In this document: one piece after another, positions 1-29,902 of the stretch
Layout: every line of letters starts with the position of its first letter
Numbering within the stretch: position 1 is the stretch's first letter
DNA from: Macrostomum lignano
Lineage: Eukaryota
Length of the DNA: 44,527 nt
Reading direction: 5' to 3'
NCBI GenBank assembly: GCA_002269645.1
Contig: NIVC01004484.1
Span: forward strand, 1-44,527
Translations under genes and position numbers: made by a program
Notes under the pieces: generated by a model
Told to the model about the DNA's origin: nothing
Seen by the model: the letters and a program-made list of their open reading frames with translations, nothing else
Databases searched by the model: none

Positions 1-45
1 CACCAGAGCGCTGCATTATTTTATTTTAAATTTTCTTTTTAAAAA

Positions 46-1072
46 ATGACAGATCAGAAACTTAAAAAACTCTACTACAGCGACAAAGGATTCTTTGTAG
101 GAAAAAATGGCAGTCACCAAACTCGCAGAACTAAGTAAGGAACCAAAAGCTAAAGTAGAAAAGTGGCTCTCTAAGCAAGCTCTACAAGTCTATTTCCCAC
201 CAGTAAAATTTGAAAGGCCCCATTTCAGTATTTATAAACCTAATGAGGCGCACCAAGCAGATCTTCTGTTTCTCCCCAATGACTCGGCTACAAGTATGCT
301 CTCACAGTATAGACATTGCCCAGATATAAGGAAGCTCGCCCACTCAAGACGAAGAAGTCAGAGGTTGTTGCCAGCGCACTGCAAGATATTTATAAAACTC
401 TCCGCTCACATACCCCAAATCTTTATGACCGACCGGGTAAGGAATTCATGGGTGCAGTGAAATCCTTATGGAAAAGAAAACACAGAGATTCGCTATGGCA
501 GAACAAACTTGCACAGAGACCAGGCTTTTGTGGAAAGATTCAATCTAACTCTAGCCAAGAGGCTATTCACTAAGCAGACAGCGCAAGAACTCAAACTGAG
601 TGCGGGGCAGTACTATACCAAGTGGACAGAAAGACTCCCCACTGTTATAGAGCAACTGAACAATGAAGTCACACGCATGACTGGATTGAAACCGTCCCAT
701 GCAATTAAACAAGACACTGTCGAACTTAAGGCATCTCATAGAACAGACAACAACACGACAACCCCACACAACACGCACAACACAAAACACACCTCGAACT
801 ACCCTAAGCTTCCAGGAGTTGAATCACCATACATACTGACAAACTCTGAGTTTCTACGCTTTTTATATCTACCTGGAGAGCTAGAGAAGGACACCAAAAG
901 AAGAGCTACAGATCCATACTTCAGCCTTGATGTACATAAAATAGACAGACATTTTACCTCCGACTCCGGTGACTATTACTTTTTATCTCAGGCCTTTAAC
1001 CCTAAATCCCCCACGCGGTCATTCACTAGAGCTGAACTCCTAGTGATACCAGCTGACACAGAAATTAATTAA
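46..1072 (+). pseudogene. Maverick retroviral-type (rve, DDE) integrase, frameshifted as assembled
   Basis: ATG at 46 (MTDQKLKKLYYSDKGF) joins ORFs 107-460, 316-573 and 509-1072 across several frameshifts. Motifs PNEAHQADLLFLP (D1), GYKYAL-V-D--SRYKEARPLK, FMTDRGKEFMG (D2, needs one G restored at 435-437), HRDQAFVERFN (E), and C-terminal RRATDPYFSL...RSFTRAELLVIP. Confidence 0.9.
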
Positions 1073-1088
1073 AATATTAAAATAAAAA

Positions 1089-1532
1089 ATGACAAAGATT
1101 GAAACCAGAACCATCAATAAACTCAATAAAATCATTGAATCAAAGAAACCAGGTCTTATATCAATTAAAGGTGCAAAGTAAAATCGATCCCACGCAAGCA
1201 AATAGTTAGTGTAATGAGCAAAGACACAGCATCACAGATGAAAAGTCAGGAGGAATCCTACCATTAGCAGCTCTTATCCCAATCATTGCAGGCGCTGTAA
1301 GTGCCGCAGGTGGTGTAGCTGGAGGTGTAGCAACTGCTGTTAAAGCTGGTAATGATAGAGCCCACCAGCTTGAATTGCAAAAGATTGCAAGAGACAAAGG
1401 TATAACAATTAAGGCAGGAGAGGGCTGCCCGATCGTGATGATTGTGAGCATGAAAATTCTGTAAGCAAGTCTGACATTGTCAAAGCCATCATGACACTGC
1501 ACAATGCTGGGTTTACAATAATGCGGATGTGA
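1089..1532 (+). pseudogene. Adenovirus pX/mu-like core protein precursor (GGILPL motif), frameshifted; absent from the ORF track
   Basis: ATG at 1089 (MTKIETRTINKLNKIIESKK). The frame 1210-1464 reads KSGGILPLAALIPIIAGAVSAAGGVAGGVATAVKAG. A further shift near 1428 gives the C-terminus DRDDCEHENSVSKSDIVKAIMTLHNAGFTIMRM* ending at 1532. Confidence 0.7.
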
Positions 1533-1657
1533 TGAGGTTTAAAACCCCACTTTATCCAGCTTCATAAACCTAACGCTACTGATAGGGTGTAGAAACAGTT
1601 CAACTTTTCTATCAGGGTGGTCACCCTCAAAATTTTTTTTTTATTTTATAGAAAAAA

Positions 1658-4600
1658 ATGCCAAAAGCTAATCCAGCAAAAGATTTAGTCAACAAATATT
1701 TTTCAAAAGGCGTCTCATTTCAAGACAAAAGTAATTTACTAAGAGAAGCATGTAAACAAAAGTTTAACACCGACCCTGGTCACCTGGGAAGCTATGAAAA
1801 ACAGTTGGAAATCATCAAACAATTAGAATCCAACCAGTATGCGCCTATAAAAATCCTGCAAAGGAACACCAAGAGAGGAGTCGCAACTTAGTTAACAAAT
1901 ACGAAACTCTCACTGGTGAAAAAGCAAAGTACCCACAAAATAAGCAGGAACAAGAGAAATTAGAGCAATTAATCCATTTAAAAGAGTCGGAGCTTGCCAT
2001 TGAAGAGATTAATTTTGCACAGAGGAAGTTTACAGAACATTACATAGAGTACACAATCCCAATTAAGGATACCACCGCAAACATCTACGACTATAAAGAC
2101 AGCATCCAATCAGTTGTTGATCACACACTCAAAACACGCAAGACCTTTAAACTACAGATATCATTCAAGATTGCGTTTTATATGCCTGCGAAACCCACTG
2201 AGCATCTCGAGTATTACATGACAACAAAGGCAAAGCCATTCACACAACAGACACTGGATCCTTTCCTTCAAGATGTCAATAAGAAAATTGAAGCGTTTAC
2301 ATCCAGAGGTTCCGGATGGGTCGTGGGAGGGATTCAAAGAGCGACTGTCATGGTCATGAAATATGACCCACTTAAAGCCTCCTCTTATATAGAGCTCCCG
2401 CATAAGCTAGCCGGCAAAAAGCTTGCATAAATGTTAAAAATAAAGACAATTGCTGTGCCTATGGGCAGTTCTTTCTGCACTTCTTCATGATAGTGTCCTC
2501 ACCACCCCGAAAGAACCTCAAATTATCAAAATTATTTCAACTACTATCTCATCGAATGCGAAAAGAAGGGAATCAGGTTTGACAAAGGAGGCTTGGCGAT
2601 TTCTCAGATCCCAAAGCTAGAAGAAGTGTTTAATAACAAAATTAGAATCACAGTCTTTGAGTGGAGTGAAAAAACTGAGAAAGTTCAACCGGTCAGATGT
2701 AGCAAAGACGTTTTAGATCCTGAGGGAAAAGGCGGACTGAAGTGGATCTTCTAGTGATTGGTAATTTACTAGAGGAGGCTCACTATGTTTGGATTAAAGA
2801 TCTTTCAAGACTCATTCACAAGCAGTTGAATAATCATCACGAGGCTGTTGCCATCTGCCGCTTGTGCCTTAAGCATTACAGTGGACCTGAACGCTTTGAA
2901 AAACTAACAGAGCATGAATTATCATGCGAGGATCACCCGACAAACTGCTCTCTTCCTTCAGCTGAAGAGAAGTATCTCCGGTTTAAGAACTATCACAAGA
3001 TGGAGAAGCTCCCATTTGTTGTATATGCTGATTTCGAATGCTCAATCGTGCCGAAACTCAAAAAAAACTCCAACTCAAAAACATGTCCCCAATTCAGTAG
3101 CATATGCCTTTATTAATACAAAAGGACTTGTTGAGTATAATTATTTCTTTGGAGAGCAGTGTGTGGAGCAGTTTATTGCCAGAATGTTAGAGTTGCAAAA
3201 AGTGATTAGCACCCTTCAACCTGTTCCAATAATGATGACTGAGGAGGATGAAAATTTCCTATCAGCAACTCATTGCCACATCTGCAGGAAACATTTAACT
3301 TGCACTGATATTAAAAACCCCACCGTTAGGGACCACTGCCACTTTACTGGGAAATTTAGAGGTGCAGCGCATAACACCTGTAATCTAAAGCTAAAATCGA
3401 ACATTCATGATCTAACGATATTTTGTCACAACGCAAAGAACTATGACATGCATTTAATAGTTGAAAAAATCGGCATGATTCCAGACATACACCTTGATTG
3501 CATCGCAGAGAACAAGGAGAAGTTTAAGTGTGTTGATATTAAACAGGATAATTCGGGTACAGGTAAAATAAGACTGAAGGATTCATATCAATTTCTAGCT
3601 GCCAGTCTAGACGAACTAAGCAAGAATCTAAAAGATGAACAATGTACATATACAAAGATGTTTGCAAGTAAAATTAACAACAGTGATGAATCATTTAAAC
3701 TCCTGAGAACCAAAGGCTTCTACCCCTATGAAAATATTACTGGGTATCACGTATTTGAAGAAGGTTTACCACCACAGGAGAAGTTCTTTTCAAAGCTAAC
3801 AGACTCTGGAATCTCTGACAAAGACTATGAGCACGCGAAGCATGTCTATAATTACTTTAATTGTCAAAACTTCTTCCAGTATCACCTGCTTTACCTCTTC
3901 ACAGATGTGTTTCTGCTGGCCGATGTGTTTGAAACCTTCAGATACACCTGGTACACAGCATATGGCCTCGATCCAGCACATTATGTGTCTCTGCCTGCCA
4001 CTAGCTGGGAATCTTTGCTTAAAATGAAATGGGATCAAGATCCAGATTGGTACATTGAACTTCTTACAGACATTGACATGTACAATTTTGTCGAATCGTC
4101 AAAGCGAGGGGGAATCTCAATTTGCACATATGCAAAAGCAAACAACCCTACATTGATCTTACAATAAGGAGCAGCCCTCAAACTACATTACTTACTTGGA
4201 CGCTAATAATCTCTACGGGTGGGCGATGAGTCAAGATCTTCCAGTTAGAGATTTTCGATGGCTACCCTCATCAGAATTCAAACAGGACTTTTCATTGGCT
4301 GCCATTTATGAGGTTGATGTTTACATTCCACCAGAGCTTCACGACTATTTCTCTGACTTTCCACCCTTCCCAGAGAACATCAAGTGCCCGAAAATAATCG
4401 AAACTCCCAATGATAATAATGGAACTTGGCACCTGTCAGGAACAGAAAAAGAACATACAGAAAACTAACACAGAATCTAAACAACAAGACACGTTACAAA
4501 ATCCATTACAAACTGCTTCAGTATTTTATCTCACTTGGTTGCAGGGTCACCAAAGTTCACAGGGCTCTTACATTTACAGAGGAAGCGTGGATGAAACCCT

Positions 4601-5498
4601 ACATTGATAAGAATACCCAGTTTAGGACCAAAGCAACCAACGACTTTGACAAGAACCTCTTTAAGTTGGCCAACAACTCTGTCTATGGCAAGACTCTTGA
4701 GAATGAGCGGAAAAGAACAAACCTGAAACTTGTTACCTCATCAGAGCCTGCTGTTATTCAGGCAAATATGTCAAAGCCAACATTCAAAGAACTCCATATC
4801 TTTAATAGCTACTTAGGTGTGATCATATTTTACAAAACCAAGGTGACGCTGCGCAAGCCGATCTATACAGGTGTCACTGTACTCGACGAATCAAAACGTC
4901 TGATGTACCAGTTCTTCTATGGCATGAAGCAGCAGTACAAGGATAAAATGAAACTCTTGTACACTGACACAGACAGTTTTATTATGGACATTCAAACAGA
5001 AGACATTTATCAGGACATGCTGCAGCAAAAAGATTTGTTTGACTTGTCTGAGTATGATGAATCTTTCAGGACACAGAATGGCGATCAAGTGTTTGACGCC
5101 ACTAACAAGAAAGTGATTGGGAAAATGAAGGACGAGATTGCTGGTGACATAATCACTGAATTCATTGGGTTGAGAGCAAAGTCCTATTTTGTAAAATGTG
5201 AGTCGTCAGACCCAATTAAAAAATCAAAGGGAATTCCGAAACGTGTGGTTAGGAAGGAAATTAATGAAGCTGAATACAGAGACGCCTTGAATTGCAACAA
5301 AAAGACATCACATGAGTTCTCAAAGCTACAATCTAAAAACCATATTATTCACACAATTCAGCAAAAGAAGATTGGACTGTCAGGTGCAGATAACAAAGAT
5401 TCATTTTTGATGACAACATTAACAGTCTACCGTTCGGGCACTGGAGATTAGGTTTAGGAGGTGGAGTTAGATTCGGGCACTGTAGATTAGGAGATTAG
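1658..5498 (+). pseudogene. Protein-primed family B DNA polymerase (pPolB) with N-terminal terminal-protein region, frameshifted as assembled
   Basis: Pieces 1658-1891, 1880s-2430, ~2430-2740, 2742-3116, 2914-4167, 4196-4468 and 4426-5451, plus a final shifted tail (DNKRFIFDDNINSLPFGH... stop 5498). Motifs VVYADFEC (ExoI), FCHNAKNYDMHLI (ExoII), YLFTDVFLLADVFE (ExoIII), YLDANNLYGWAMSQ (PolA), KLANNSVYGKT (PolB), LYTDTDSF (PolC), KVIGKMKDE, FIGLRAKSY. Confidence 0.95.
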
Positions 5499-5555
5499 GA
5501 GGTTGGGTTTAGATTTAAGAGAAAGTTTAATAAACCTCATAAAAATGACATAAAA

Positions 5556-5957
5556 ATGACGACAAATAACTTTCTTGAAGATTTGGCTAACGAACTGGAA
5601 ATCCCAAACTTTAGAGGAATATTTATGAGGGACACTCTGCCTGATTTTCCTCTAAGAAAGGAATGCGGCATCATGAACTTTGACACCACCGATAAGCCAG
5701 GATCTCATTGGGTTTGCTGGGTGATTGATCCCGATCGCAAGCACAAGTGTTATTACTTCGATAGCTATGGGACGGCAGTACCAGAAGAGCTAAGAAATTA
5801 TATGAAGGGGAAAAATAATAAAAAAAATTATCGCTCAGACTTTATTCTCCAAGGTCTTAGCAGTGATATTTGCGGTGAGCTGTGCATGACTGTTTTGTAT
5901 GCAATGACCAAAACACGAAAGACCTACAAGGAAATTATTCTTGGCTGTGTTTCATAG
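5556..5957 (+). CDS. Adenain-like (C5) cysteine maturation protease
   Basis: GIMNFD...GSHWVCW (His), YYFDSYG (Asp), ILQGLSSDICGELC (Gln and Cys). Intact 133-aa ORF in the usual Maverick position after pPolB. Confidence 0.92.
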   Translation: MTTNNFLEDLANELEIPNFRGIFMRDTLPDFPLRKECGIMNFDTTDKPGSHWVCWVIDPDRKHKCYYFDSYGTAVPEELRNYMKGKNNKKNYRSDFILQGLSSDICGELCMTVLYAMTKTRKTYKEIILGCVS

Positions 5958-5961
5958 GGGT

Positions 5962-6620
5962 TCATTGTGCATTTCTCGTCGTCCTTCTTGCCGAATTTCT
6001 TGCCGACTTTCTTTCCACATAATGTTGAAAAACTTTCTCGAGTTCATTTTTCAGCTGACTCATGTCATCAGTACCGACCATGTTCAAGTTCATTCGAATT
6101 GATTGTTCATAAAGATCCTGAATGGTTTTGAACTCATCCTCTGAAATGAACTTATCCTCGATTGCCCTTGAAATGTACCCTATGATTGAAGTGTGCACCC
6201 CTTTCTCTTTTACTTGCTTCTCCTGTAGCTGCTTTAGTTTTTTTCGCCTGTTTCGCGCTACTGCTCCAGTAATTGCTGAAATAAGTCCACATGCAGCACC
6301 CACAGAGCCGAGCGGGATTGCGATTGGGGCTGTGATGGCTGGCAACACTGAGACAGCTGCAGCAGATCCAGATAGAACAGACACAGATCCTAGAATCATA
6401 TTGCTGTAGTCGAAAAATTTACAGTGGTTGTCATAGCGCTTAATTTTCTTTGTGTTGTGGAAAATATTTTTTTCAAGATCATCTCGCATTTTTTGAATCT
6501 CCACCAGTCGAAACTGTTGAGAGTTACAAGTAATGACGGGGTAGAGTTTTTGTTGCTCATATTGGGTGCACTAGGTGTTGTGGGAGCGTTCGGATCATAA
6601 AGAGAGTTTTGAGCATCCAT
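5962..6620 (-). CDS. Conserved Maverick hydrophobic/membrane-active protein (one frameshift near the 5' end)
   Basis: ATG at 6620 (MDAQNSLY..P..PSAP) joins the frame QQFRLVEIQKMRDDLEK (ORF 5962-6504). Long Gly/Ala-rich hydrophobic hairpin (ILGSVSVLSGSAAAVSVLPAITAPIAIPLGSVGAACGLISAITGAV), then a basic segment and ISRAIEDKFISEDEF, a pattern I recognise from Maverick proteins. Confidence 0.65.
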
Positions 6621-6727
6621 TTTTTAGGGAATTTTTAAAAAAAATCGGCAACTAGTTGGTGGTGGTTAGATTTGTTTTACGGTTGATTGCTTCGTCTGCA
6701 GTGACGGCAACAGGTCTCTGAATCTGC

Positions 6728-7458
6728 CTATTCATTATCTGTGAGCTCCATTCTACGCATGATCTCAAACAAGTCGGTTGGATCACTTGTTTCCCTTGTG
6801 GTCTGTGGTGCCTCTTCAGCGTCAATGTTTTTGAGATTATGCAAGCGTTCAAGACGACCGATTCTTCTCACCGATTTCTGCCATTCGGTAAAAACTAAAT
6901 CTACAAAGACTTTATTTGCAGTAATTCTTACTTTGATTTGATCATGCAACGCTGTTGACTGAGTCATGAACTCTTCTAAATTCCTCACTTTACCTGTGTT
7001 GGTTGCTACGTTTCTCTAATTCTATCATGCAATGCTGTTGACTGGTTCATGAACTCTTCTAAATTCCTCACTTTAACTGTGTTTGTGAAAACTCCTTCTT
7101 CAAGAATGCGCATCCGCCTATCAATGGAGTTTCTCAGAAGATTAACTGTCGATCTCAAGCCGTTGATTAGCGAGACTATCGAAGTTATTTCTGACCTTAG
7201 TTCATTAGTTGCGTTTAACAACGGCACATAAAGCTTATCACTTTCAAACTTCTGCCTAGCTACTTTAAGCCTGAGATCTTCCATGTTTATTTGCAACTGG
7301 TGCATGGAGCGCTCTAATTGTTTCAGTCTGTTTTTATTCAGTTTGATCTCTGGGATCTTTTCGTCGCTGTTGATATATCGCCTGTCAAGGATGGATATCT
7401 GAGCTGATGTAAGAGCGCTGTTGCCAGAAATGGATTCACCTGCAAAGTTTATCGACAT
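6728..7458 (-). CDS. Coiled-coil fibre/spike-like protein (ORFs 7006-7458 and 6728-6988 joined by one restored base)
   Basis: N-terminus MSINFAGES resembles the MSVD(I/V)FGRS starts of Maverick fibre-like proteins. Heptad-rich sequence. A 28-aa internal duplication (NT-KVRNLEEFM-QSTALHD-I) is spaced 83 nt apart, one short of 84. Confidence 0.55.
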
Positions 7459-7474
7459 CTTTTAATAGCAAATT

Positions 7475-8275
7475 TTAAATTACAGTTCTTTTTTCTTTGC
7501 TGATAATCACAAACTGGTAAGGCTGATTCCACTTGTCATAGCAAAGATTAACGAATTCCTCTTGTGAAATCTTTCTGCTTGAGTTTTTTGTTGGATTTAT
7601 GAAATAGGCAGGCGCAATGACCTCATTGTAAAATCTTTTTAGCCTGTCCTGTGGAATGGTTGGAAACAGGAGAATCAGATTGCAGTTCCCACGAATTGTT
7701 TTGTTCGGGAGCTCGAACCAATTCTGTGCAATGTAAATTACATTGCAATTGTTATGTCGCCCTCTTGTAAAATAGTTTTCTATCTGCTTCTGTGGGCCTG
7801 TCATACAATCATCAAAGACGATCAAATGCTTTCTCCCCTTTTCTAGCTCATCTGGTTGGGGTAGAAGTTTGGTCTTTGGATCAGCCTGTGGATCTCCATA
7901 GGTGAACACTTTAATGTTCTGCCATTTTTCATTGTCTTTGAGGTGCTTTGCATATTCAGCAGCTACAATTTCAGGGTTACTGGGAAGGCTCATTTGGTTA
8001 TTAAAACATGCAATAATGTCCTCTTTGTGCAGTTTGTTTTGCAATCCAGAAATCAACATTTTATACTCATCTTGATACAGTGTGGGAGAGTAGATGTGCA
8101 GAGTGTCATAGTCGATAAAGCCAGGTCTAAGAAGCATGTTAAAGACTCTGAATGTTTTACCTGAACCTGATGAACCAACAACAATGCATCTGAAGTGACT
8201 CGGAATTGACTCGTGATGAGAAAACTTAATCTGATTACGCGTCCAGTGAGGATTGAAGTCGTTTGAAAAGTCCAT
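7475..8275 (-). CDS. A32-like FtsK/HerA DNA packaging ATPase
   Basis: Walker A GSSGSGKT, Walker B LIVFDD, arginine finger FTRGRHNN, IYIAQNWFELP. Likely true start ATG at 8275 (MDFSNDFNP) after an AAAAA leader; the extension to 8368 only translates a tandem repeat. Confidence 0.93.
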   Translation of the reverse strand: MDFSNDFNPHWTRNQIKFSHHESIPSHFRCIVVGSSGSGKTFRVFNMLLRPGFIDYDTLHIYSPTLYQDEYKMLISGLQNKLHKEDIIACFNNQMSLPSNPEIVAAEYAKHLKDNEKWQNIKVFTYGDPQADPKTKLLPQPDELEKGRKHLIVFDDCMTGPQKQIENYFTRGRHNNCNVIYIAQNWFELPNKTIRGNCNLILLFPTIPQDRLKRFYNEVIAPAYFINPTKNSSRKISQEEFVNLCYDKWNQPYQFVIISKEKRTVI

Positions 8276-8313
8276 TTTTTCTATGATGAAAAAAAATTTA
8301 AATAATAAATAAT

Positions 8314-8376
8314 TTAGATGTGTCATTTTGGGACTTAGATGTGTCATTTCGGGACTTAGATGTGTCATTTTGGGAC
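8314..8376. repeat. 21-bp direct repeat x3 (TTAGATGTGTCATTTTGGGAC) upstream of the ATPase
   Basis: Copies start at 8314, 8335 and 8356, with one substitution in copy 2. Confidence 0.9.
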
Positions 8377-8403
8377 TAGTCTTGTACCCTCGGAAAGTAC
8401 CCT

Positions 8404-8793
8404 TTAGTCAAATTTGAAACCACTTCCTTTTTTAATGCTAGCTCTCATCTTCTCATAGACTGCAGGGTCCACACTGTCTGGATTTGGGGCCAATGGAGCC
8501 AGCGGGGCCAGTGGAGGCTGAATCTCTTGTTTAGGTGTTACAGTATCCTTTATCTTTTTGGCTGCTGTGGCTACACTGCCAGCCGCTTCGGCAACGTTCT
8601 TGATGTTCTCTTTGTTCTCTCCAATGACCTTAAAAATCTTGGCCCCCTGAGCGATCAAATCGGCAAGGCCATTCCCAGAGCGTTCTTTTCTTGGATAGTG
8701 GCCTGCAGGGAAAAGTCCAGATCCGCGTTTAATAAGATTAAGTTCCTCTTTGTCATAGTATTTGTCAATGTCTTTCTCAAAAATAATTGGCAT
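8404..8793 (-). CDS. Small Maverick core/lytic-type protein with three GxG motifs
   Basis: Probable start MPIIFEKD (ATG 8793 after AAAA). KRGSG, RSGNG and terminal KKGSGFKFD motifs, the amphipathic stretch LADLIAQGAKIFKVIG, and a Pro-rich segment. Confidence 0.65.
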   Translation of the reverse strand: MPIIFEKDIDKYYDKEELNLIKRGSGLFPAGHYPRKERSGNGLADLIAQGAKIFKVIGENKENIKNVAEAAGSVATAAKKIKDTVTPKQEIQPPLAPLAPLAPNPDSVDPAVYEKMRASIKKGSGFKFD

Positions 8794-8809
8794 TTTTACT
8801 TGAAATAAA

Positions 8810-10006
8810 TTATTTTTTGTTGAACCGCGAAAGCAGAAGCTCTCTCGCCCTCTTATCGATGTATTTTCTCTCAAGCATTTTGTTCAGAATGTTGACAAAT
8901 TCTTTTCTATTCTCGTCTTTCATTCCGGTCTTTGCCGCTCCTAGAAGAACCGCTACTCGCTTGTAGATTTCAGCTATTCCTTTTCCAGATTTGGGTGGTT
9001 GGTCTTGGGGTTGTGGAGTTGGTTGGGCTTGTGGCTGCTGGGGAGGTGATCCAAAAGACTGCTCACTTTCAGAGATGGAACTGTCATGTGGCGCCTGTCT
9101 TTGTTGAGGTGTGAAAACTCTTTGATTGATTCTATTCATTCGATCTGGGGAGATATTTTCTAGTTGTTGCCAATCTGTTGGGTTTTGTTTCTTATATTCA
9201 GCTACTTGAGTCGGATCTGCATTTTCCAGTTGCCTGAGTACTTCTGTGAAATGTTGCTGCTGCTGTGGTTGTGGTTGTTGTTGCTGTTGTTGTTGTTGTT
9301 CTAGATATTTTATGACTTCCGCCTGATCTGGCAAATCGAACCATTGTTTAAAGTGTTTGTACTTTTTGAATCTAGTCAGGTTGACACCGTTATCATACAT
9401 AAGTCTCAGGACTTCTGGGGCCTTTAGTATTTCTATATCTCTAGCAAGAGCAAAAGTCACTAGATCTCTATAGTTCTTTAGCTGTTTGTCCGAGATTCTC
9501 TCTTGGTTCTTGGTCATAAAAGTCAGTAAGGTTTCTGTGAAAGGAATGCTCTTAGTTTCCGAGCCTTTGACAACAGAAATATGTTTCTTATTTATGTCGA
9601 TATAATATTCCACTGGTTCATTATAAATGTTTTTTCTCCACATACTTATTCCAAATACATATTTCCCATCATGTTCGACACGCTCTACTGGTCCAAAAAT
9701 GTTATCTGTCACTTTTAGTTGTGATTGATGTGGTTGTGGTTGTTGTGGTTGCGGCTGTATCTGTGGTGCTTCTGGAATTTTGCCCAAAATCTTTTGCACT
9801 TGGGTTTCCTGTATGTCGTCGATAGTTTCTTTGACCTGATCAATATTTTTCTTAGCTTCTCCATACCCGGGTTTATGAAACTCTGTGGCTGCTTGGACAA
9901 ACTCATTGTAGGATTGTTGCTCCTTATTTATTAGCCCGGTAACTCGTTTCTCTGCTTGTGCTAGCTTCTCCAATTCAGATATCTGCTGTGTACTTTTCCG
10001 CTTCAT
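8810..10006 (-). CDS. Q/P-rich 398-aa Maverick conserved hypothetical protein (possibly PZ-like)
   Basis: Intact long ORF. N-terminal coiled coil, polyQ/QP tracts, and C-terminal KSGKG...VLLGAAKTG...EFVNILNKMLERKYI resembling the conserved tail of a Maverick core protein. Confidence 0.7.
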   Translation of the reverse strand: MKRKSTQQISELEKLAQAEKRVTGLINKEQQSYNEFVQAATEFHKPGYGEAKKNIDQVKETIDDIQETQVQKILGKIPEAPQIQPQPQQPQPHQSQLKVTDNIFGPVERVEHDGKYVFGISMWRKNIYNEPVEYYIDINKKHISVVKGSETKSIPFTETLLTFMTKNQERISDKQLKNYRDLVTFALARDIEILKAPEVLRLMYDNGVNLTRFKKYKHFKQWFDLPDQAEVIKYLEQQQQQQQQPQPQQQQHFTEVLRQLENADPTQVAEYKKQNPTDWQQLENISPDRMNRINQRVFTPQQRQAPHDSSISESEQSFGSPPQQPQAQPTPQPQDQPPKSGKGIAEIYKRVAVLLGAAKTGMKDENRKEFVNILNKMLERKYIDKRARELLLSRFNKK

Positions 10007-10036
10007 TTCTTATTTTATTTTATTTTTAGTTAAAAA

Positions 10037-11323
10037 ATGAACGACCCACTGACACCAGTTTTCTACAAAATTAACAAGCCTATTTTGAGTGATAATAGCA
10101 CAATCAAAGCGACTCAGGTAAGAGTTCCCAGTCAGGAAAATCAGAATGAAACTAATCTTGGTCCTGGTCAAACACTGACATTTACATACAATGGATGTTC
10201 GTCTTTGGTTAGTGTGCACAGTCTTAAGAGCGGCTTCCATATGACATTTCAATTCAAGACAAAGGGTGGTGCGGATGCGGCTCGTGCTAACGTTGACAAG
10301 CATGATGCGGATGTGGCTCTGATCAGTAACTTTTGGGCGTACATGTTCAAGGAGTTTAGTGTATCGAATGGGAGCACTGAGTTGGAGCGAATCGCCAACT
10401 TTGGAATTGTCTATGACGCTCATTGTTTGATCGAGAATCCTGATTTTATTCAATTGGGAAGTGGTGCGGGTTTTATTGCAGATGAAAAAGAAGGAGATAT
10501 CAATGACAGTGGCTATAAAAAGAGGAAGAAGAGATACAACTATGCATTGCAAGGTGCTGATGATGCTGCTAAGAACCCGCTGTATCGGTCTGTTGATGTA
10601 TTTGTACCATTGAGATTCATGAGTGGATTCTGTAATACATTTAATCGACTGACTAGTAACTTTAGCTACACCTTTAAGATGACTAGAGATGATCGCAGTA
10701 GAGTGTTGTGGACTGGGGCGGACCACACAAGGATGGAGGTGAAGCTAACTGGAATCGAGCTGTATTTGGAAGTCATTGAGCCAAAGACTGCACTAAAAGC
10801 GGATTATCTCAAGGCAATAGAGAAGGACATTGATGTTGCATACACGGCCTACATGTGTCGAGATGAGCGAAACGAAACTAGAACAAACATCTGCATCAAA
10901 GAGGGATCATGCAGCAATCCAAGGTATATCATTATTAATATGAGAAACCCAAATAGCATTATACGCTACATGCATGGAGACGTGCGGTCCATTCAGCATG
11001 AAATCAGTGATAATCTTTACCCTGCACTGCCACAAAATGGAGATTTCAGTCAGAACAAGATTAGCAAATTTTACAGCGAGTTGGTCGACTTGGCTGTGAA
11101 AGAGAACAATGGAATTGCTATCACTGCTCTCCAATATGGAACTCTATATCCGATGTTTGGCGCTGATGTGTCTGCCAGACAAATGCCTACTGATAACAGC
11201 CCTGTGAATATCGTGACTAACATTGAAAGGACTGCCGCAACACCCGTGGACCTGTACATTGTCTATGCATTTGAGAGGAAGGTGAAGCTTAACATGATCA
11301 ACAATTCATCCAGTAAAGTTTAA
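10037..11323 (+). CDS. Major capsid protein (double jelly-roll, PY)
   Basis: Intact 428 aa. Beta-rich sequence with VFVPLRFMSGFC, PRYIII, YPALPQNGDFSQNKISKFYSEL and QYGTLYPMFGADVS, typical of Maverick MCPs; lies immediately upstream of the penton gene. Confidence 0.88.
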   Translation: MNDPLTPVFYKINKPILSDNSTIKATQVRVPSQENQNETNLGPGQTLTFTYNGCSSLVSVHSLKSGFHMTFQFKTKGGADAARANVDKHDADVALISNFWAYMFKEFSVSNGSTELERIANFGIVYDAHCLIENPDFIQLGSGAGFIADEKEGDINDSGYKKRKKRYNYALQGADDAAKNPLYRSVDVFVPLRFMSGFCNTFNRLTSNFSYTFKMTRDDRSRVLWTGADHTRMEVKLTGIELYLEVIEPKTALKADYLKAIEKDIDVAYTAYMCRDERNETRTNICIKEGSCSNPRYIIINMRNPNSIIRYMHGDVRSIQHEISDNLYPALPQNGDFSQNKISKFYSELVDLAVKENNGIAITALQYGTLYPMFGADVSARQMPTDNSPVNIVTNIERTAATPVDLYIVYAFERKVKLNMINNSSSKV

Positions 11324-11343
11324 ATATTTTTTTAGGACAAAAA

Positions 11344-12207
11344 ATGGAAGCTATAGCCGAAAGACTAAATAACATTGTTTCACACTCTAAGGAGAGCATT
11401 CCTATTACAATAACTGGGCGAATTAATGACTCAAACGGGATGTTTGTTGAAAAATTAGAGCAGGCGATTCGCTTGGATCCAGGCGCTAATTACCATGTCT
11501 ATCTTAACGACTTCACTGGTTGGTCAAACGTTCCCAATGTGATGGCAGCAAATAATAAGTTTTATTACAAATGGAAAGGCGCAGCAGCAGACCCTGTGGT
11601 ATTCCATGTGAGCACGCAAAGTGTGGATACCTACAATAACTTTCTAGAAAATGTCTTTACTAAGAGAGGCCATTTTGAGACACCTGATGCGAGTAAGCCA
11701 GAAAAGAAACTGTTCCCTGTCAAACTAACCTATGATCTCACTGTAATGAGAGTGGTCATGCAAGTTCACAAAGATGCGGAGGTTGAGTTTAAAGATGACA
11801 CTTGGTATAGGGAACTGGGATTCGAGAAGAAAGTTTATAAGGCAGAATCCGCGGCGCGGACCGCCACTCAAGCATCGGGGACCGTTAAAATGGCCCGGGA
11901 AAATGTAAGCGGTTTGTTCTTAGCACCCAATATTGCAGACATTGTAAAGGGTTTGAATATTCTAATCAGAAGCAATCTCAGTCTTGATTGGGTATTTAAG
12001 GGAAAGCGAACGAATATTTTGTACAATATCTCCAACTCTGTAGCTGGAGGACAGATGGTGGTAGAGAAACCAAATCCAGTGAAAAGAGTTGTATTGAGTA
12101 ATAAGGAGATTCACGAGATTGTGCTACAGTTTGAGACTGAAGATGGGGTAGGTGTTGATTTTAATGGGGAAGAGTTTGTATTGACGTTGATCATTGAGAG
12201 AATGTGA
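11344..12207 (+). CDS. Minor capsid / penton protein (single jelly-roll, PX)
   Basis: Intact 287 aa. IRLDPGANYHVYL, SNVPNV..ANNKFYY, DIVKGLNILIRSNL, TNILYNI, EKPNPV, IHEIVLQFETEDGVGVDFNGEEFVLTLII. Confidence 0.88.
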   Translation: MEAIAERLNNIVSHSKESIPITITGRINDSNGMFVEKLEQAIRLDPGANYHVYLNDFTGWSNVPNVMAANNKFYYKWKGAAADPVVFHVSTQSVDTYNNFLENVFTKRGHFETPDASKPEKKLFPVKLTYDLTVMRVVMQVHKDAEVEFKDDTWYRELGFEKKVYKAESAARTATQASGTVKMARENVSGLFLAPNIADIVKGLNILIRSNLSLDWVFKGKRTNILYNISNSVAGGQMVVEKPNPVKRVVLSNKEIHEIVLQFETEDGVGVDFNGEEFVLTLIIERM

Positions 12208-12639
12208 GAAAATGCGTTCCCTTTTAAGTATGCTTGCCGAGAATAGAGTGGTATGAAAAAATGCGCGCATGTGTACTCAAAATCTCTTACCCCATTCTGA
12301 CAGTTTGTGGGCGCGGCCGTCTCGTGTGTGGGGGGAGAGGGGAGTGTATGTGTGTGGGTGCAGCGTGCGTGGGGGAGAGAGATTTTCACTTTAACTGAGC
12401 CCAGCCGAGGAAGAATTTCCTTGATTGATATTGGCCTTCGCTTCTCTTCTCTCCACACAAGTGTACAGTCTTGAGCACACTGGTTTCGGTTACAATCTCT
12501 CTTTCCACCATGCTTCTCCTTGGGGGGGGGTGGTGGGGGGGGTTTGTATTATATGCTTCTAATAAAGAAATAGGCAGACTGCTGAAAGAAATAGGAGAAA
12601 TTTGTTTCTAGCGGACGCTCGAACTCGCATCGTATCTTC

Positions 12640-12736
12640 GTAAGTAAATCCTGACTTACTTTAAACCATTTTCTGTAACTTTCAGTTGCTTTTTTAATTC
12701 TAAACTATTTAAAACACTCTACTTATATATTTGTAG
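12640..12736 (+). other. Candidate 97-nt 5'-UTR intron of the terminal ORF
   Basis: Donor TC|GTAAGT at 12640 and acceptor TATATTTGTAG at 12736, five bases before ATG 12742. Confidence 0.5.
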
Positions 12737-12741
12737 ACAAA

Positions 12742-13464
12742 ATGTTTAATGCAACTACAGCCAGAATCACCATGCAAGATCTCACAGGTTTTATCGATTC
12801 CATCGATCAATTTATTGTTGAGGAGCATAAGGATGACGTTAAAGACATGGTTCGAGAACTCTGGGAAAGATTATCTGAAGATGAAGAAAGGCATCTGCGA
12901 GTCAGTGAAGAAATGAAAATACGGAAGATGAAGGAAAGAGCCACGGATGTATTCCATAAACTTCGAAGTTCGCTTCAATATGAGAACGAGCAAGCGGCTC
13001 AGGCAGAGGTAATTAGTGAGGGGGAGTTAGAAGCCATCTGCAACGACATCACAAACCGAGGTCCTGTTGACAATGGGGTGCCGGAACTGCATGAAAACCT
13101 GGTTAAGCAGGGCCAAATTTACAACCGGCGAACTTGGGTGGCAGCATTTTTTCTTGGAAAAGTGTATGACCAATTTATTACGAGGCATCAGCAGACATTA
13201 ACAAGCCTGGCGGAACTGTTCAGCGTGAGTTACTACCACGTGCAATCCCGCCATAACATCTATACTCTGGTGACCGAGCTTCCACGGCTCCGCTTTTGCT
13301 CTGTTTCGGCTACATTCCTGCATGACAACTCTAGGACGATTCGGAGCGAAAGGTGGTGGCAAACGGATGCAGCAGATTGGCTAGATCCGACTCCCCCAAC
13401 AAGACCTCCATCGGCGGCTGAACTTCAGGGCCTTCTCGATGCTTACTGTGAGTTATCTGTGTGA
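12742..13464 (+). CDS. Terminal hypothetical protein (240 aa), unknown function
   Basis: Intact ORF with coding-like composition. Helical N-terminal half; C-terminal FFLGKVY...FSVSYYHV...IYTLVTELPRLRFC could be HTH-like. Preceded by the ACAAA-ATG context and a candidate 5'-UTR intron. Confidence 0.75.
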   Translation: MFNATTARITMQDLTGFIDSIDQFIVEEHKDDVKDMVRELWERLSEDEERHLRVSEEMKIRKMKERATDVFHKLRSSLQYENEQAAQAEVISEGELEAICNDITNRGPVDNGVPELHENLVKQGQIYNRRTWVAAFFLGKVYDQFITRHQQTLTSLAELFSVSYYHVQSRHNIYTLVTELPRLRFCSVSATFLHDNSRTIRSERWWQTDAADWLDPTPPTRPPSAAELQGLLDAYCELSV

Positions 13465-13699
13465 AATGAAGGAAAAAACGTGTGTATTATTGGCCCACCC
13501 AATATGTGTGAAATGAAGGAAAAAACCGTGTGTATTATTGGCCCACCCAATATGTGTGAAATGAAGGAAAAAACCGTGTGTATTATTGGCCCACCCAATA
13601 TGTGTGAAATGAAGGAAAAAACCGTGTGTATTATTGGCCCACCCAATATGTGTGAAATGAAGGAAAAAACCGTGTGTATTATTGGCCCACCCAATATGT
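13459..13699. repeat. 48-bp tandem array x5 containing the dyad TATTGG-CCCAC-CCAATA
   Basis: GGCCCACCC at 13492, 13540, 13588, 13636 and 13684; copies are near-identical with no spacers. Confidence 0.95.
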
Positions 13700-13799
13700 G
13701 TGTCTTGTGCTAAAAATAGCCAGAGCTTGCTGTGTAAAAAAGCACGCGACAGTGTGGAATGTGGAACGTGGGGGGGGGGGATTTTCTCAACTGTAGCTG

Positions 13800-13998
13800 G
13801 ACCAATATGTGAGGTGGTGGAAAAACCTTGTGTATTATTGGTAGAACCAATATGTGTGGGACAATGGAAAAACCTTGTGTATTATTGGTAGAACCAATAT
13901 GTGTGGGACAATGGAAAAACCGTGTGTATTATTGGTAGAACCAATATGTGTGGGACAATGGAAAAACCGTGTGTATTATTGGTAGAACCAATATGTGT
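13800..13998. repeat. 47-bp tandem array x4 containing the dyad TATTGG-TAGAA-CCAATA
   Basis: GGTAGAACC at 13840, 13887, 13934 and 13981; shares the TGTGTATTATTGG..CCAATATGTG core with the 48-bp array. Confidence 0.95.
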
Positions 13999-14281
13999 CC
14001 TGCGCTCTCCCCACTGCCTCTCTTTTATAAAAATATAGTACTAATGTGAATACTACCACTCAACTTTTTGCTGCAGATGATGAAGCTGCTGCTGTTGGAG
14101 ACGGTCAAGCAGCTATGGATGACTGAGCTCTTTTGAACAACTTAGCATTGATATTATGGACTTAAAGTCGCTAATCTAAATACACTCTGGTTGTAATTTT
14201 TAAGCCTCTTCTAACTTCAAAGCCTGCTTATTAAAATAAATGATAACTGAATCAACATATTCCGGTTTTTTTTGCCAATTG

Positions 14282-14840
14282 ACGAAGCTTCGTAAACTCT
14301 TTAATGAAAAAGCAGAAAATGCTAAAATATATTTTTAACCTAATGCTAGTAAAAGTAGTAGTTCAGAGTGAAAATTCTAAGCGACAGAAAATTTCAACTT
14401 ACGAAGCTTCGTAAACTCTTTAATAAGAAAGCAGAAAATGCAAAAATATATATTTAACCTACTGCTAATAGAAGTAGTAGTTCAGAGTGAAAAGCATAAA
14501 ATGCTAAAGTATATTTTTAACCTACTACTAGTAGAAGTAGTAGTTCAGAGTGAAAATTTTAAGCGACAGAAAATTTCAATTTATGGAGCATTGTAAACTC
14601 TTTAATGAAAAAAGCGTAAGATGCTAAAATATATTTTTAACCCACTGCTAATAGAAGTAGTAGTTCAGAGTGAAAATTTTAAGCGAAAGAAAATTTCAAT
14701 TTACGAAGCTTTGTAAACTCTTTAATGAAAAAGCATAAAATGCTAAAATATATTTTTAACCCACTGCTAATAGAAGTAGTAGTTTAGAGTGAATATCTTT
14801 AGCGACAGAAAAATTCAATTTACGAAGCTTCGTAAACATA
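14282..14840. repeat. ~120-bp diverged tandem repeat (~5 units) beginning with the palindrome ACGAAGCTTCGT
   Basis: Unit starts near 14282, 14401, 14582, 14703 and 14822, with a partial internal duplication around 14490-14580. Confidence 0.85.
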
Positions 14841-15032
14841 TAAAAGACAATCAAGATTCAGAGAAAATTTAGATTTTTTCAAAGGGTAAGGACCCTGCGC
14901 TGATGATTTAAAGTCTTAGGGATCTGGTTTCATGTTGCGAATTGAATGTGGGGATAAGAATGCAGATTGTTTTCTGATTGTTTCGAAGATGCTATGGGTG
15001 GATGTTGGTGTCAATGAACATAACAGGTGTTA

Positions 15033-17738
15033 CAAGGACCACTAGAAGTTACCGTTGTATCAGGACGCAACACTCGTAAATATTGCAAATTTATTTGAAG
15101 GCCCGCTTGTTTGCATTGCAGCTGAACTTTAAATGCTCATAACTCCGGACTGGTTGCACTTAAAAAGATATTTTTTTTCGCCAGGTTGCTCAAAATTTTA
15201 TTTTCTTTAACATGATGCAAAGTTTGGCGCTATATCTACATGTAGGAGCGGCGGGCGTACAGTAAAGTAACGGCAATACACAATATTTCATTGCATACAG
15301 AATGAATAAAGTTTCAGTTACTTCAATCATTGCCTCCTAGTCTCGATAAAGTAGCAGACCATACTTTATATCCTCCAGTTTGGAAGCTTTATAAAGCAGA
15401 TAATCTGTACAGAGTTGAGTAGGCTGCAAAGGCATTATATACACTTCACTATCAATAACCAGTATAATCAAAATCAGGAAGGCATAATATTTCCGAAATC
15501 TTGGCACACCTGCCCAACAAGGACTCCAACATTCAAAATCTTTCTTTTGTTGTTGAAATGAACAGTAGGAGTCAAATAAAACTTGTACAGTATCACAACT
15601 TTATTTTTATTCAAGTTCACATTCGATATAAGAATATCTAGTTTCAGAAAAATGCATGCGAAATTAGAAAACAAAGTTAAAAACTAACAGTAAGCCAATG
15701 TATTTTAAACAATTGAACCTTCATATCAATCAACAATCAAGTCACATTGTCAAAAAGTCTCTTAAAATCACAAAACATAATTAATTACAGTACTTCACTA
15801 TGGTAGCTCAGCAGACATTGATGGATGAACATCTAGATTGGATGACTCAGCACAACTGAAATGAAACCAATGTGGGATTAATAAATACATGCTTTGCAAT
15901 GAACAACAAAATAAAAGCCTTGTTTCTAGTTAATGAATATATTTTCTCTATAATCCAACATGTATGAAACAAAGTTTAGAATATCAAAATCATAGCTGGT
16001 TTAACTAACATGAAACTGACAAAATTAAGGTATATTGAATATAGATATAAAGGTGAATAGACAAGATATAAGAGATAAGAGAAGAGGAAGATGAGAGAGC
16101 AGAGAGGAAAGATGGAAAAGTAGAGAACAGAGGAAAGAGAAAAGACAAAGAGGAGAGGAAAGATAAGATAACAATGGAGAGAGAAGAGAGGAGAGGGAAA
16201 GAAGAGTAGAGAGCAGAGAATAGAAATAAGAGTTAAGATAAAAGAGGAGGGATAAGAGAGGAGAGAAGGGAGAGATGGCAAGATGATTTAGATGAAATGA
16301 AAAAACAAGAGAGAGAAAAGAGAAGTCTCAAAGAACCAGAGGGATTAAGAGAGGAAAAACATTTTTTTGCATATTGAAGGTACTAACTAACATAAGAATG
16401 TCATGTAAGTAATGAATATATATATGCCTATATAATTAATTATAAATAGAACCCTATATCTAACAAAATTTTCAACAAATTATCAAACCAATAGTGAAAT
16501 ATAGGAATAAAAATAAATAATAATAAATAATAATAATAATATATATAAAGATTAAAGATAACTGAAAGCCAAAAGGTTTTTTGCAAATAAATAATTCTGT
16601 ATTATTTTAATACAAAGAATTGCAAGCAAACAGAAACTGCCAACTGGTAATAAAAGAAAACTAAAGAAAAAAGTTGCAGCAATATAACTTCTAAAAATAG
16701 GCCTAGGACTAGGTGCTATAAATATCCATATCTTTAAGATAGTATGTAGTACATTATAGTATTATTGTTAAAAGTAGAAAAAAGTATTTTAGTAAAAAAT
16801 ACATTCAGAAATTAAAAAAAGCCAATATAATAAACTTTAGCCTTGTTGTTCCTAGGCCTATGTGAAAACAACTTCAATAGGCCCTATGCTAAATTATATA
16901 CTCAATACAAATTAAAGCATAGGTTAAGGGTTAACTATAGCAATATCTTATTGGTTGGATAGATTAAAAACAAATAGTAAACTATCATTTGACTTGTCTG
17001 ACACTAACATGTCATTAGGCCTAAGCATGAGTAGGTCCTATATGAGATTAGTCTTCAAGTCTTCCAATAATTGAATTTGGCATGATATATTAAACATATA
17101 TAGGGAAATTATTGATTTGACAATTTTTACCTTAAAATAACTAGATCTAAGTTAACAAGCTAGGCCTATTTTAAAACAATAATAGAATATAATAAATCAT
17201 GGTAGGCCTAGGCATAGTAGCTATAGGCCTAGCTGTTGTTAGGCCTACGCCTACTAGCTTTAGTGTGATAATGACAACTGCCATGACAGCAAAAAGCCAA
17301 AAGGCTAAGGTTAGGCCTATAAAGTTAGCATAATAATATACTTGTTAAACTACTTTTTTGTTGATAGTTAATTAGTTAGAAGCCCATCTGATCCTTTTCT
17401 CAAGCTTTGTCGAATTAGTAGTTCTAGCACTTAGCAGTATATGTCAACTGTCTGCATAAAACCTTGGCTTAGGAAATTCTAAAACGAGTTTCATATAGTG
17501 ATATAATTACTTAAAATATCTAGATTTAACAGATTAAAGCCTAAATAAAGTATAAATACACCTATTTATGGAGCTTCTGAGGCTCAAATGTAGTGCATGC
17601 TTCTTTAAAACAGTCAAGTAGAATACTTTTTTGAAGGCAAGTACCGATAAATACACGTAAACAAGCGGGCCTTCAAATAATTTTGCAATATTTACGAGTG
17701 TTGCGTCCTGATACAACGGTAACTTCTAGTGGTCCTTG
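15033..17738. mobile_element. Non-autonomous TIR DNA transposon (P- or hAT-type), 2706 bp
   Basis: 80-bp TIRs at 15033-15112 and 17659-17738 (CAAGGACCACTAGAAGTTACCG..., 1 mismatch). Perfect 8-bp TSD AGGTGTTA at 15025-15032 and 17739-17746. No transposase ORF inside. Confidence 0.92.
15975..16330. repeat. Polypurine (GA-rich) low-complexity tract
   Basis: Nearly pure A/G on the + strand; this explains the spurious L/F/S-rich ORF 15976-16281. Confidence 0.85.
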
Positions 17739-17765
17739 AGGTGTTAGTGGACATCTGTTATGCAC

Positions 17766-17980
17766 TGATTCTGTCAGGGATAATATGGATGGATTTAATA
17801 CGATTATGTTCGAAGTTTTCGGAGCAAGTGCGACCCCTCCACTTTTTCATGATTCTGTCAGGGATAATATGGATGGATTTAATGGGATTATGGAGGACGT
17901 TTTGTGAGCGAGTGCGACCCCCCTTTTTTTCTGATTCTGTCAGGGATAATATGGATGGATTTAATGGGATTATGGAGGAC
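17766..17980. repeat. ~83-bp tandem repeat x3 (TGATTCTGTCAGGGATAATATGGATGGATTTAAT core)
   Basis: Core starts at 17766, 17850 and 17932. Confidence 0.85.
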
Positions 17981-19520
17981 GTGAAAAATTTTGTCCCAGA
18001 AGCCCCCTCATGCCTTCTACTTTTTCAGTTGAGGTTATTGATGAGGAAAAAAATACTACAATCGTACTCACATGTCACCGAGCGACGAATCACAGTGTTC
18101 GAGTGTTCGATGGCCGCCTGGGCCACTCCGATTCGTAATGTGGCAAGACCGATAAATATCGGGATGCGCTTTTGCAGAAACCAGTGGGATAAAATGCAGG
18201 TTTAAAAGCAAACTTGTTCTAGATTATAAGCTACAAGTATGCTCGATAATAATAATAGCTAAATATGCAAAGGTTACTAGCAATCTTGTCTGATATTTAT
18301 AGTGAGCAGTAAATCGTTTTTAAACGTTTTCTTATTTTGGATTCAAATAAAGGACAACAAGAAATTTGACTGGTTTCTTTCGACAGTAACACTGTCTTGT
18401 ACATTACCACTCTTGATTGGTGGTAAACAATTCAATTCAAAGATGATAAGCAATTTGCCGATTATATTTATTGGGTAAATAACCGGCTGCACAATTTGTT
18501 GCTGTAGAGCAGTTGGATTTCCGAGTCAATGAGAGTGTGTGTTACGTATTTCAATTAATGCATTAAACTTAAGGTTAGTTTCCTTCCCCTAGTGCCATTT
18601 ATGTTGCGGGAATGTTGTACAAATGTTGACGCGCAACAAGTGGTAAACGTTGCTAGAAGCGACCGTTTGTCGCGCAAAACAACGTTGCAGAATGGTTGAC
18701 GCATCAACATTGCAAAATCAACATACATCAACATCTGTGCAACATGTAGTCGTCGTGTCTACTATTAGTAGTATCTAATGTATGTGTATTATTCTATATA
18801 CTACATATATTTCGTATCACTTTCATTCTATAATATACGACGACTCTACTATTACACTTGCTTATGTCTTTCTTTCGCATGCCATGCATTAATTTTGGAT
18901 TGTTGTTAAGGAACTTCTACCGGTAGTAACACTGACTACATAGTAAAAAATCTGTAGCTTGCACACAGGTTCAAAAATCGAGACTCCTACATCTTGAAAT
19001 AATACGAAAATACGGCCATGACTTAGCATTTGCTAAAAAGAATAAGTAAAATAGCAAAAAACGTTTCGATTTAAAGGTCTGCGAAGATTAGCTAATGAGC
19101 ACCATTAATTTTTTTTGTTTTATCGTAAACACATCAGATCAGACGGTTACCATTATAGTAGGTCAAGAAAGCAATAAAAATATTTACTACATTAGATGCG
19201 CATGATGTGTATCTTTGTGTGTGACTGCAAGCTGCAACCTGCAGTGTTTCTTTTAATGAATAAAAAAGTTAGCAGGAAAATAAGAGATTCGCAAAACTAT
19301 TATTAATGGCAACTGCTATTTGCATGCTGGCAAAACAGACATGTCGTTCAGAAAAGATGCAAAGATAACTAGAGATCTGATGGCGATGATTAAAAACAGC
19401 TATAGCCTCCAAAGAGATTCACCTAACCTAGAGCGAGTCTATACTGATCTTTGTTCTTAGAACTTAGAACAACTAGTTTTATTAAGCCACCAATCCCGTG
19501 AAGTCTGAACTCCTATTTAC

Positions 19521-28250: not shown

Positions 28251-28391
28251 AAATTCCAAGACATATCCTTGTGTCTAGCTATACTCTAAAGAAGACGAAA
28301 GAATTCAGGAGCATATGCACGTTTTGGCGTTGTGAGCTGAAAATATTGTAGAAAATAATGAACTGCAATGAGATAGACTCTCTGATGGATA
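28251..28391. repeat. Dispersed repeat copy; an inverted partner lies at 31331-31475
   Basis: The reverse complement aligns over ~140 bp (CATTATTTTCTACAATATTTTCAGCTCACAACGCCAAAACGTGC; AGCTAGACACAAGGATATGTC). A related fragment near 30080-30150 matches 28093-28160. Confidence 0.8.
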
Positions 28392-29697: not shown

Positions 29698-29902
29698 GAC
29701 AATTGACTGCCACAATTTGACTGCCGACAATTTGACTGCCGACAAAATGACTGCCAACAAAATGACTGCTGACAAAATGACTGCGGCAATATGACTGCCG
29801 ACAATATGACTGCAGCAATTTGACTGCCAGCAAAATGACTGCGGACAAAATGACCGCCGAGCAATTTGACTGCTGAGAAAAAGACGGCGGAAATTTGACT
29901 GC
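29698..29902. repeat. ~15-bp degenerate tandem repeat (TTTGACTGCCGACAA), MULE-end-like
   Basis: About 13 units of (A/T)(A/T)TGACTGC(C)GACAA read directly. Confidence 0.85.

Follow-up and report, generated by a model that had tools for sequence, protein, structure and literature searches.

The left part of a 44,527-nucleotide stretch of DNA from the 764-Mb genome of the flatworm Macrostomum lignano (hereafter, the window, which is an entire contig, NIVC01004484.1 or C4484, of the assembly GCA_002269645.1) is occupied by an integrated Maverick/Polinton element. Comparison with its relatives in the same genome indicates, with good although not complete confidence, that this is one copy of a large family of near-identical elements with open, selected capsid genes that spread recently, likely via a free linear DNA form, probably carried in particles. 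The window contains an unremarkable, partly decayed copy; the most unusual feature of the family is an allele-specific slot next to the terminal inverted repeat (TIR).

An earlier, sequence-only reading of the window had described an endogenous element of the Maverick/adintovirus type, and the TIRs starting with AGTAG, the 6-bp target site duplication (TSD) and the core gene set bear this out. Among the signatures of Mavericks/Polintons, we found TIRs with AG/AGT-type ends and the 6-bp TSD, a packaging ATPase together with an adenain-type protease, a double jelly-roll major capsid protein (MCP), an rve integrase and a protein-primed family B polymerase (pPolB; recognized by its motifs and a PF03175 match of one fragment, and split in this contig). 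Because the window is the whole contig, the element is truncated at base 1; the missing left end of about 1.3 kb, with the TIR, an open reading frame (ORF) of 80 amino acids (aa) and a phospholipase A2 (PLA2) gene, is present in a sister contig, C4675. The right end had been placed at position 14060, which is ruled out by the downstream sequence, common to other copies, and by the TSD at 18022; the true end is at 18021 (..CCTTCTACT, then TTTTCA). In C4675, C986 and C70, the stretch upstream of the integrase gene corresponds to window positions 14863-15032 plus 17739-18022, inverted, and therefore the right TIR is split by a transposon and ends at 18021. Thus, both the left TIR, in C4675, and the TSD could be located, and the two TIRs of this insertion, taken from the window and C4675, are 99.6-100% alike. 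The family terminus is AGTAGAAGG, and the TIR is about 450-700 bp long.

The right flank of the window is shared by another contig, C1660, and judging from their sequences, the window, C4675 and C1660 are one insertion. From 13767 on, C1660 and C4675 contain the 2.7-kb transposon of the right TIR, which we take to be hAT-like, in inverted and partially duplicated form, an arrangement that differs from the window; these contigs may therefore represent different haplotypes or subgenome copies. Macrostomum lignano has been described as a hidden tetraploid (PMC5704211), which would explain the spread of one insertion over three contigs.

The sequence-only reading missed the family to which the element belongs, with at least 100 copies, and the variable cassette at 12432-14860. 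There are 200 exact occurrences of the 24-bp terminus in the genome; the numbers 635, 665 and 991, which count mere candidates, were dropped as estimates of copy number. MCP matches at 97-100% identity number at least 98 among those scored, 94 of which contain no stop codon, in a set that includes the best candidates only and is thereby biased to good copies; for pPolB, there are 142 scored matches. Insertion sites are fewer than copies because some insertions were assembled more than once. Among nine two-ended copies that were fetched, the flanking 6-mers match at five independent sites besides that of the window (C4261 and C1527 represent a single site, one mismatch is present in C744, and two left ends were missed by the motif); in a second set, the nine two-ended contigs among the first 30 termini, they match in six. 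The outer flanks of all 30 termini lack mutual resemblance, which rules out a satellite as the target site. Substitution divergence between copies is 2-6%, and the TIR pairs are 98-99.8% alike in six of nine copies. These values, together with the TIRs of the insertion in the window, agree with the earlier claim of recent integration.

Selection was assessed in equal-length open copies, with two to five pairs per gene. The ratio of non-synonymous to synonymous polymorphism (pN/pS) is 0.08 for MCP (five pairs), 0.09 for the penton and for the 129-aa ORF (three pairs each), 0.13 for the protease (two pairs) and 0.17 for the integrase (five pairs); in MCP and penton, about 5-7% of the synonymous sites differ compared to 0.4-0.6% of the non-synonymous sites. 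Altogether, these comparisons show at least 100 near-identical copies at unrelated sites, which form a young family with capsid genes under purifying selection. Many copies at unrelated sites could also be produced by an intragenomic self-synthesizing transposon, with the capsid genes conserved merely for lack of time to drift in so young a burst, and a pattern search of IMG/VR with MCP, which detected no related viral contig, is compatible with such a scenario. However, given the large excess of synonymous over non-synonymous change, drift had time to act and its products were removed; furthermore, the closest MCPs elsewhere come from metagenome assemblies, at 71-77% identity (101 clusters at E up to 0.001). 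We therefore regard strictly intragenomic spread as quite improbable. Several copies are internally deleted but retain both TIRs, with lengths of about 6, 12 and 14 kb, respectively: C4828 (L001/L035), C744 (L007/L038) and C1638 (L024/L025). The TSD of C4828 is perfect, so such shortened derivatives probably were mobilized in trans or were deleted after insertion.

The sequence-only reading held that integrase and pPolB kept every catalytic motif. In the window assembly, these genes consist of three and seven frames, respectively; all six exonuclease and polymerase motifs of pPolB that were searched for exist but are spread across four frames, and the second Asp motif of the integrase is split. 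With its split integrase, split pPolB and interrupted right TIR, the window as assembled falls outside the 'intact' class of Mavericks (unbroken core ORFs with TIRs and TSD; PMC8097293). We favor, with fair confidence, consensus error as the source of the frameshifts in the window. Compared with C4675, the window shows 21 substitutions against 47 indels, of which 42 are 1 bp long and 28 of these touch homopolymers; for C1660, the respective figures are 16 substitutions and 62 indels, 53 of 1 bp and 41 of those touching homopolymers. The homopolymer background is 32%. Because indels outnumber substitutions 2-4 fold in these comparisons of sister contigs, assembly error is likely. Moreover, the private indels of the window are concentrated in its first 7 kb (26 of 31), where the contig ends. 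C1660 likewise ends there, with the same indel skew, and C4675, which continues, has four indels of its own in the 1-7 kb interval. Most of the frameshifts in integrase and pPolB thus likely arose as errors of assembly close to the end of the contig.

The alternative is a recently extinct burst, in which the frameshifts are real, nearly all copies are non-autonomous and inactive at present, and the capsid genes retain a signature of selection that goes back to several exogenous founder viruses. A full-length open pPolB (at least 1150 aa) is found in four of the top 100 matches and is lacking in the other 96, and several copies carry secondary insertions and deletions. Furthermore, three of four runs, which represent different samples and studies, contain the right junction of this insertion as one contig; hence the insertion is not a new one. 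Conversely, the excess of indels between contigs of one insertion and their clustering at contig ends, the rarity of in-frame stops (4 of 98 MCP matches) and the close similarity of the TIR pairs in six of nine copies speak against extinction, which we consider unlikely.

Several observations count against recent spread of a functional family and against assembly error. In every copy whose pPolB region was fetched, this gene is split, the median open pPolB frame among the top 100 matches is 431 aa, and such breaks are so common that widespread real decay could account for them. At 8 of the 31 indel sites private to the window, most other copies carry the same state as the window. A long interspersed nuclear element (LINE) in C2918 has a fully open frame of 5.8 kb, and gaps in non-coding controls amount to only about one per kb; the assembly therefore is not uniformly error-rich. 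The flanking 6-mers differ in three of the nine two-ended contigs among the first 30 termini. The pN/pS of the ATPase is 0.98, on only five changes in two pairs, and the window is one side of each pN/pS pair, so that the pairs are not independent. Finally, the element is known here from assembled contigs alone.

The identification of the genes rests on profile matches, motifs and one structural model. The model of the MCP (mean pLDDT 91.8) matches double jelly-roll capsid proteins of a virophage, an iridovirus, a chlorovirus and an adintovirus at 7-12% identity, and its PF21738 match (E 4.9e-5) is below the cut-off. The 287-aa ORF behind the MCP is conserved and has no database match; neither does the 129-aa ORF, which we predict, by inference, to be a virion protein processed by the protease. 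The virion genes were originally described as uninterrupted and, indeed, MCP, the penton-position ORF, ATPase, protease and the 129- and 398-aa ORFs are all open. The integrase of C4675 is an open frame of 345 aa (PF00665, E 8.3e-9). For pPolB, the match to PF03175 (E 4.9e-10) comes from one fragment only, PF02945 (E 1.4e-4) is below the cut-off, and no PF03175 match was obtained for the 343-aa C-terminal frame or for the 992-, 760- and 487-aa frames of other copies. The Cys and His patterns of OTU domains are present in all three open N-terminal pPolB frames of other copies, with no Pfam OTU match. The call of an adenovirus pX-like gene stands with respect to the domain, located in frame 1210-1464 (PF05829, E 1.5e-7, above the cut-off); the gene itself is not intact in the window, and is open at 148-154 aa in several other copies. 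The names pVI-like and fibre-like, also proposed originally, have no database match behind them; the coiled-coil gene could be called fibre-like by analogy only. The PLA2 gene of C4675 (PF08398, E 3.5e-14) is separate from pX, on the opposite strand.

The family shares with animal Mavericks/Polintons (Barreat and Katzourakis 2021, PMC8097293) the AGT-type TIR ends, the 6-bp TSD, pPolB, integrase, protease, ATPase, and major and probable minor capsid genes. As here, virion genes of those Mavericks are subject to purifying selection according to the same source; the pN/pS of 0.08-0.17 for close pairs in the flatworm is far above the value of 0.001 given there, the methods not being comparable. 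In vertebrates, the median is 8 copies, and the cases with 172-287 copies are all defective, unlike the flatworm family with its invertebrate host, at least 100 copies, MCPs that are 97-100% identical and open frames. High copy number alone is not new because polintoviruses of stony corals (10.1101/2023.10.06.561300) show large expansions, with up to 1,676 regions, in an invertebrate. Nematode Polintons (PMC10748475) resemble the flatworm family in gene exchange between near-identical elements and in the nuclease insert in pPolB; however, the swapped gene is pPolB in nematodes, as opposed to a subterminal helix-turn-helix (HTH)-like gene with its own repeat array here. Insertions of Orthopolintovirales are known from a rhabditophoran flatworm (10.1101/2025.04.19.649669). 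The literature searched contains no account of the present family or its cassette; repeat libraries, subscription journals and supplements were outside the scope of this search, and the family may already be catalogued.

With Beta adintoviruses (Starrett et al. 2021, PMC8502044), the family has in common a PolB with a weak pfam03175 match, adenain, an FtsK-type ATPase, an rve integrase, hexon, a probable penton and pX. In that classification, PLA2 fused to pX characterizes Alpha virion modules and gasdermin-like genes characterize Beta. In contrast to Alpha, PLA2 is present in the flatworm family but separate from pX, and neither the archetypal pfam03175 PolB nor the PLA2-pX fusion of Alpha was found. 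No match to gasdermin (Beta GasderminX) was detected in Pfam or Atlas; no profile-profile search against gasdermins was made. The weak pfam03175 match provisionally suggests the Beta PolB class.

In typical copies of the family, the penton gene leads directly to the 80-aa ORF and then to the TIR. A minority carry an additional cassette that faces the TIR in each copy and adjoins the right TIR in the window, C986 and C70, and the left TIR in C4828, C2918, C744, C96 and C172. The cassette encodes a 240-aa protein (ORF240) that is preceded by a predicted spliceosomal intron, the ends of which are kept in the sequences of C2918 and C96. Relatives of ORF240 in the genome are 23-47% identical, and 9 of the 10 loci fetched lie between the 80-aa ORF and PLA2 of the same Maverick family (at the C45 locus, there are no core genes within the fetched stretch). 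Six allele classes of this slot (with C1638, C2793 and C819 members) occupy the same position, are 13-31% identical to ORF240 and share a helical core in the family alignment. In C2793, two frames are separated by a GT-AG gap and are joined in a UniRef entry. A profile search with the slot family recovered four proteins from 5145 candidates, each a UniRef entry under the name Macrostomum lignano. Over most of their length, three of these have 97-100% identity to ORFs in sister copies; hence the unsampled host lineage suggested by the sequence-only reading is not supported. As a single query, ORF240 produced no homologue; PDB matches appeared only at E above 0.02, and Atlas was uninformative.

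Four of the six allele classes are each followed by a palindrome array of their own: TATTGG-N5-CCAATA, TTTACGAAGCTTCGTAAA, TCCTGG-N4-CCAGGA and TCCTGA-N4-TCAGGA. Counted with its context, the first of these is found 81 times, in 12 contigs that all possess the ORF240 allele, and its arms are fixed while the spacers vary. The arrays of the last two types sit beside proteins that are 62-66% identical to one another. In addition, an 18-bp palindrome is perfect three to four times beside the 214-aa allele (C27, C186, C1638) and zero to one time in the ORF240 copies that retain the repeat, as if this word decayed once its partner allele had been replaced. The alleles of C2793 and C819 have a three-unit heat-shock element upstream, and the ORF240 allele of the window has none. 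An adenovirus-type NFI site was ruled out for the array on spacing.

From these patterns, we interpret the slot as a swappable module consisting of a regulator and its operator, and give allele-specific binding roughly even chances. Weighing against this interpretation, the HTH call is weak (Pfam matches in 4 of 10 family members, best E 6.7e-4), the fold prediction for ORF240 failed (pLDDT 36.6), and two of the six allele classes have no palindrome array. Conceivably, then, the arrays are hairpins or CCAAT-box sites for a host factor that act in replication or transcription, or by-products of tandem repetition, rather than operators of the slot proteins: CCAAT, present on both strands of the palindrome, is a common host promoter word, and besides the classes without arrays, C4261/C1527 contain two instances of TCCTGT-N4-ACAGGA at a place where no slot gene was found. 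The constancy of the arms beside variable spacers argues against this view, as does the change of the array type with the protein allele even between the similar proteins mentioned above, and we rate it as somewhat less than an even possibility.

Extrapolating from known Maverick biology, the life cycle of these elements would start with excision or copying out, followed by protein-primed replication from the TIRs by pPolB. The ATPase would pack the DNA into a shell of MCP and penton that is matured by the protease; the PLA2 and pX-type proteins would aid entry, and the rve integrase would re-insert the element. The subterminal slot is probably swapped between copies by recombination beside the TIR, and the HTH-like protein is predicted to bind the adjoining palindrome array, regulating transcription or replication at the end of the element. 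The window copy is more likely passive than a source element because its right end is degrading, with a transposon in the TIR. At the time of PMC8097293, no Maverick particles had been observed in animals. A young family with at least 100 copies, selected capsid genes and a culturable host makes the question of particles accessible to observation in existing cultures and data, and the allele-specific pairing between HTH-like gene and palindrome array offers a lead on Maverick regulation. By analogy with phage immunity regions, one could imagine a still-active, particle-forming Maverick in a cultured model flatworm, the copies of which swap a DNA-binding protein together with its operator, with a heat-shock promoter in front of some alleles, so that near-identical proviruses would differ in regulatory identity; we consider this speculation unlikely.

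Table 1. Features of the Maverick/Polinton element in the window
Feature	Coordinates	Strand	Remarks
Integrated Maverick/Polinton	1..18021	.	Cut by contig start
rve integrase	46..1072	+	Three frames; second Asp motif split between two
pX-domain gene (adenovirus core protein X-like)	1089..1535	+	Frameshifted
pPolB with endonuclease VII-like insert	1658..5451	+	Seven frames
Adenain-type cysteine protease	5556..5957	+	Open; PF00770 E 3.5e-4, just below cut-off; H/D/C motifs
Conserved hydrophobic accessory gene	5962..6623	-	Split; 219-249 aa where open
Coiled-coil gene, variable length	6728..7458	-	Split; 241-317 aa where open
A32/FtsK-type packaging ATPase	7475..8368	-	Open; PF04665 E 3.9e-6, above cut-off; Walker A/B
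129-aa ORF	8404..8793	-	Open; two K/R-x-G-x-G words
398-aa Gln/Pro-rich ORF	8810..10006	-	Open
Double jelly-roll MCP	10037..11323	+	Open, 428 aa
Probable penton (minor capsid protein)	11344..12207	+	Open, 287 aa; name from position and size only
Variable subterminal cassette	12432..14860	+	Minority of copies, either end of element
Predicted spliceosomal intron	12640..12736	+	GTAAGT ... TTTGTAG; just 5' of cassette ORF ATG
ORF240	12742..13464	+	240 aa; family with predicted HTH
Tandem arrays, 48-bp and 47-bp	13458..13998	.	Nine TATTGG-N5-CCAATA palindromes, two different spacers
119/120-bp repeats	14276..14860	.	18-bp palindrome mostly imperfect; one perfect at 14819-14836
Right TIR, inner part	14863..15032	.	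100% to C4675 left TIR over 170 bp
Non-coding transposon in right TIR	15033..17738	.	80-bp TIRs, 8-bp duplication AGGTGTTA
Right TIR, outer part	17739..18021	.	Ends ..CCTTCTACT
6-bp TSD TTTTCA	18022..18027	+	Identical six bases before C4675 left terminus

Some additional observations concern the element and its relatives. In many copies, the 80-aa ORF (L018:4882-5124) lies inside an extended TIR, often at both ends, and in some copies, its left version diverges from the right one by as much as 12%, a sign of possible exchange between elements. In C2918, a LINE (L006:2155-7947) encoding PHD-like fingers, PWWP, apurinic endonuclease (APE), reverse transcriptase and RNase H is inserted in frame within the 398-aa gene, resulting in a single open fusion of 1930 aa; it contains the 2A-like motif DVETNPGP. 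A group I intron in the PLA2 gene of the family was sought with Rfam, with no match in 10 sources, and GGNCC is not avoided in the element core (18 observed vs 19.7 expected).

Beyond the Maverick, the match of C1660 and of the contigs from the runs to the window ends at 18585, and a repeated element begins at 18586; the latter contains a 57-bp tandem array (21000-21538) and a 640-aa open transposase-like frame (22930-24852, minus strand) with a weak DUF4218 match. Nested long inverted arms at 28206-31517, flanking a 15-bp tandem array (29697-29903), probably belong to a foldback-type transposon. Decayed remnants of a copia-like retrotransposon (SH3_retrovirus, E 1.2e-20, and a weak rve match) occupy 41045-42046 on the minus strand, and a host frame of 784 aa at 42157-44511 on the plus strand, open and truncated by the contig end, contains a URGCP-like domain (PF25496, E 9.8e-53). 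The ratio of observed to expected CpG is 0.58 in the element core (window 1-12211) and 0.86 in the host part.

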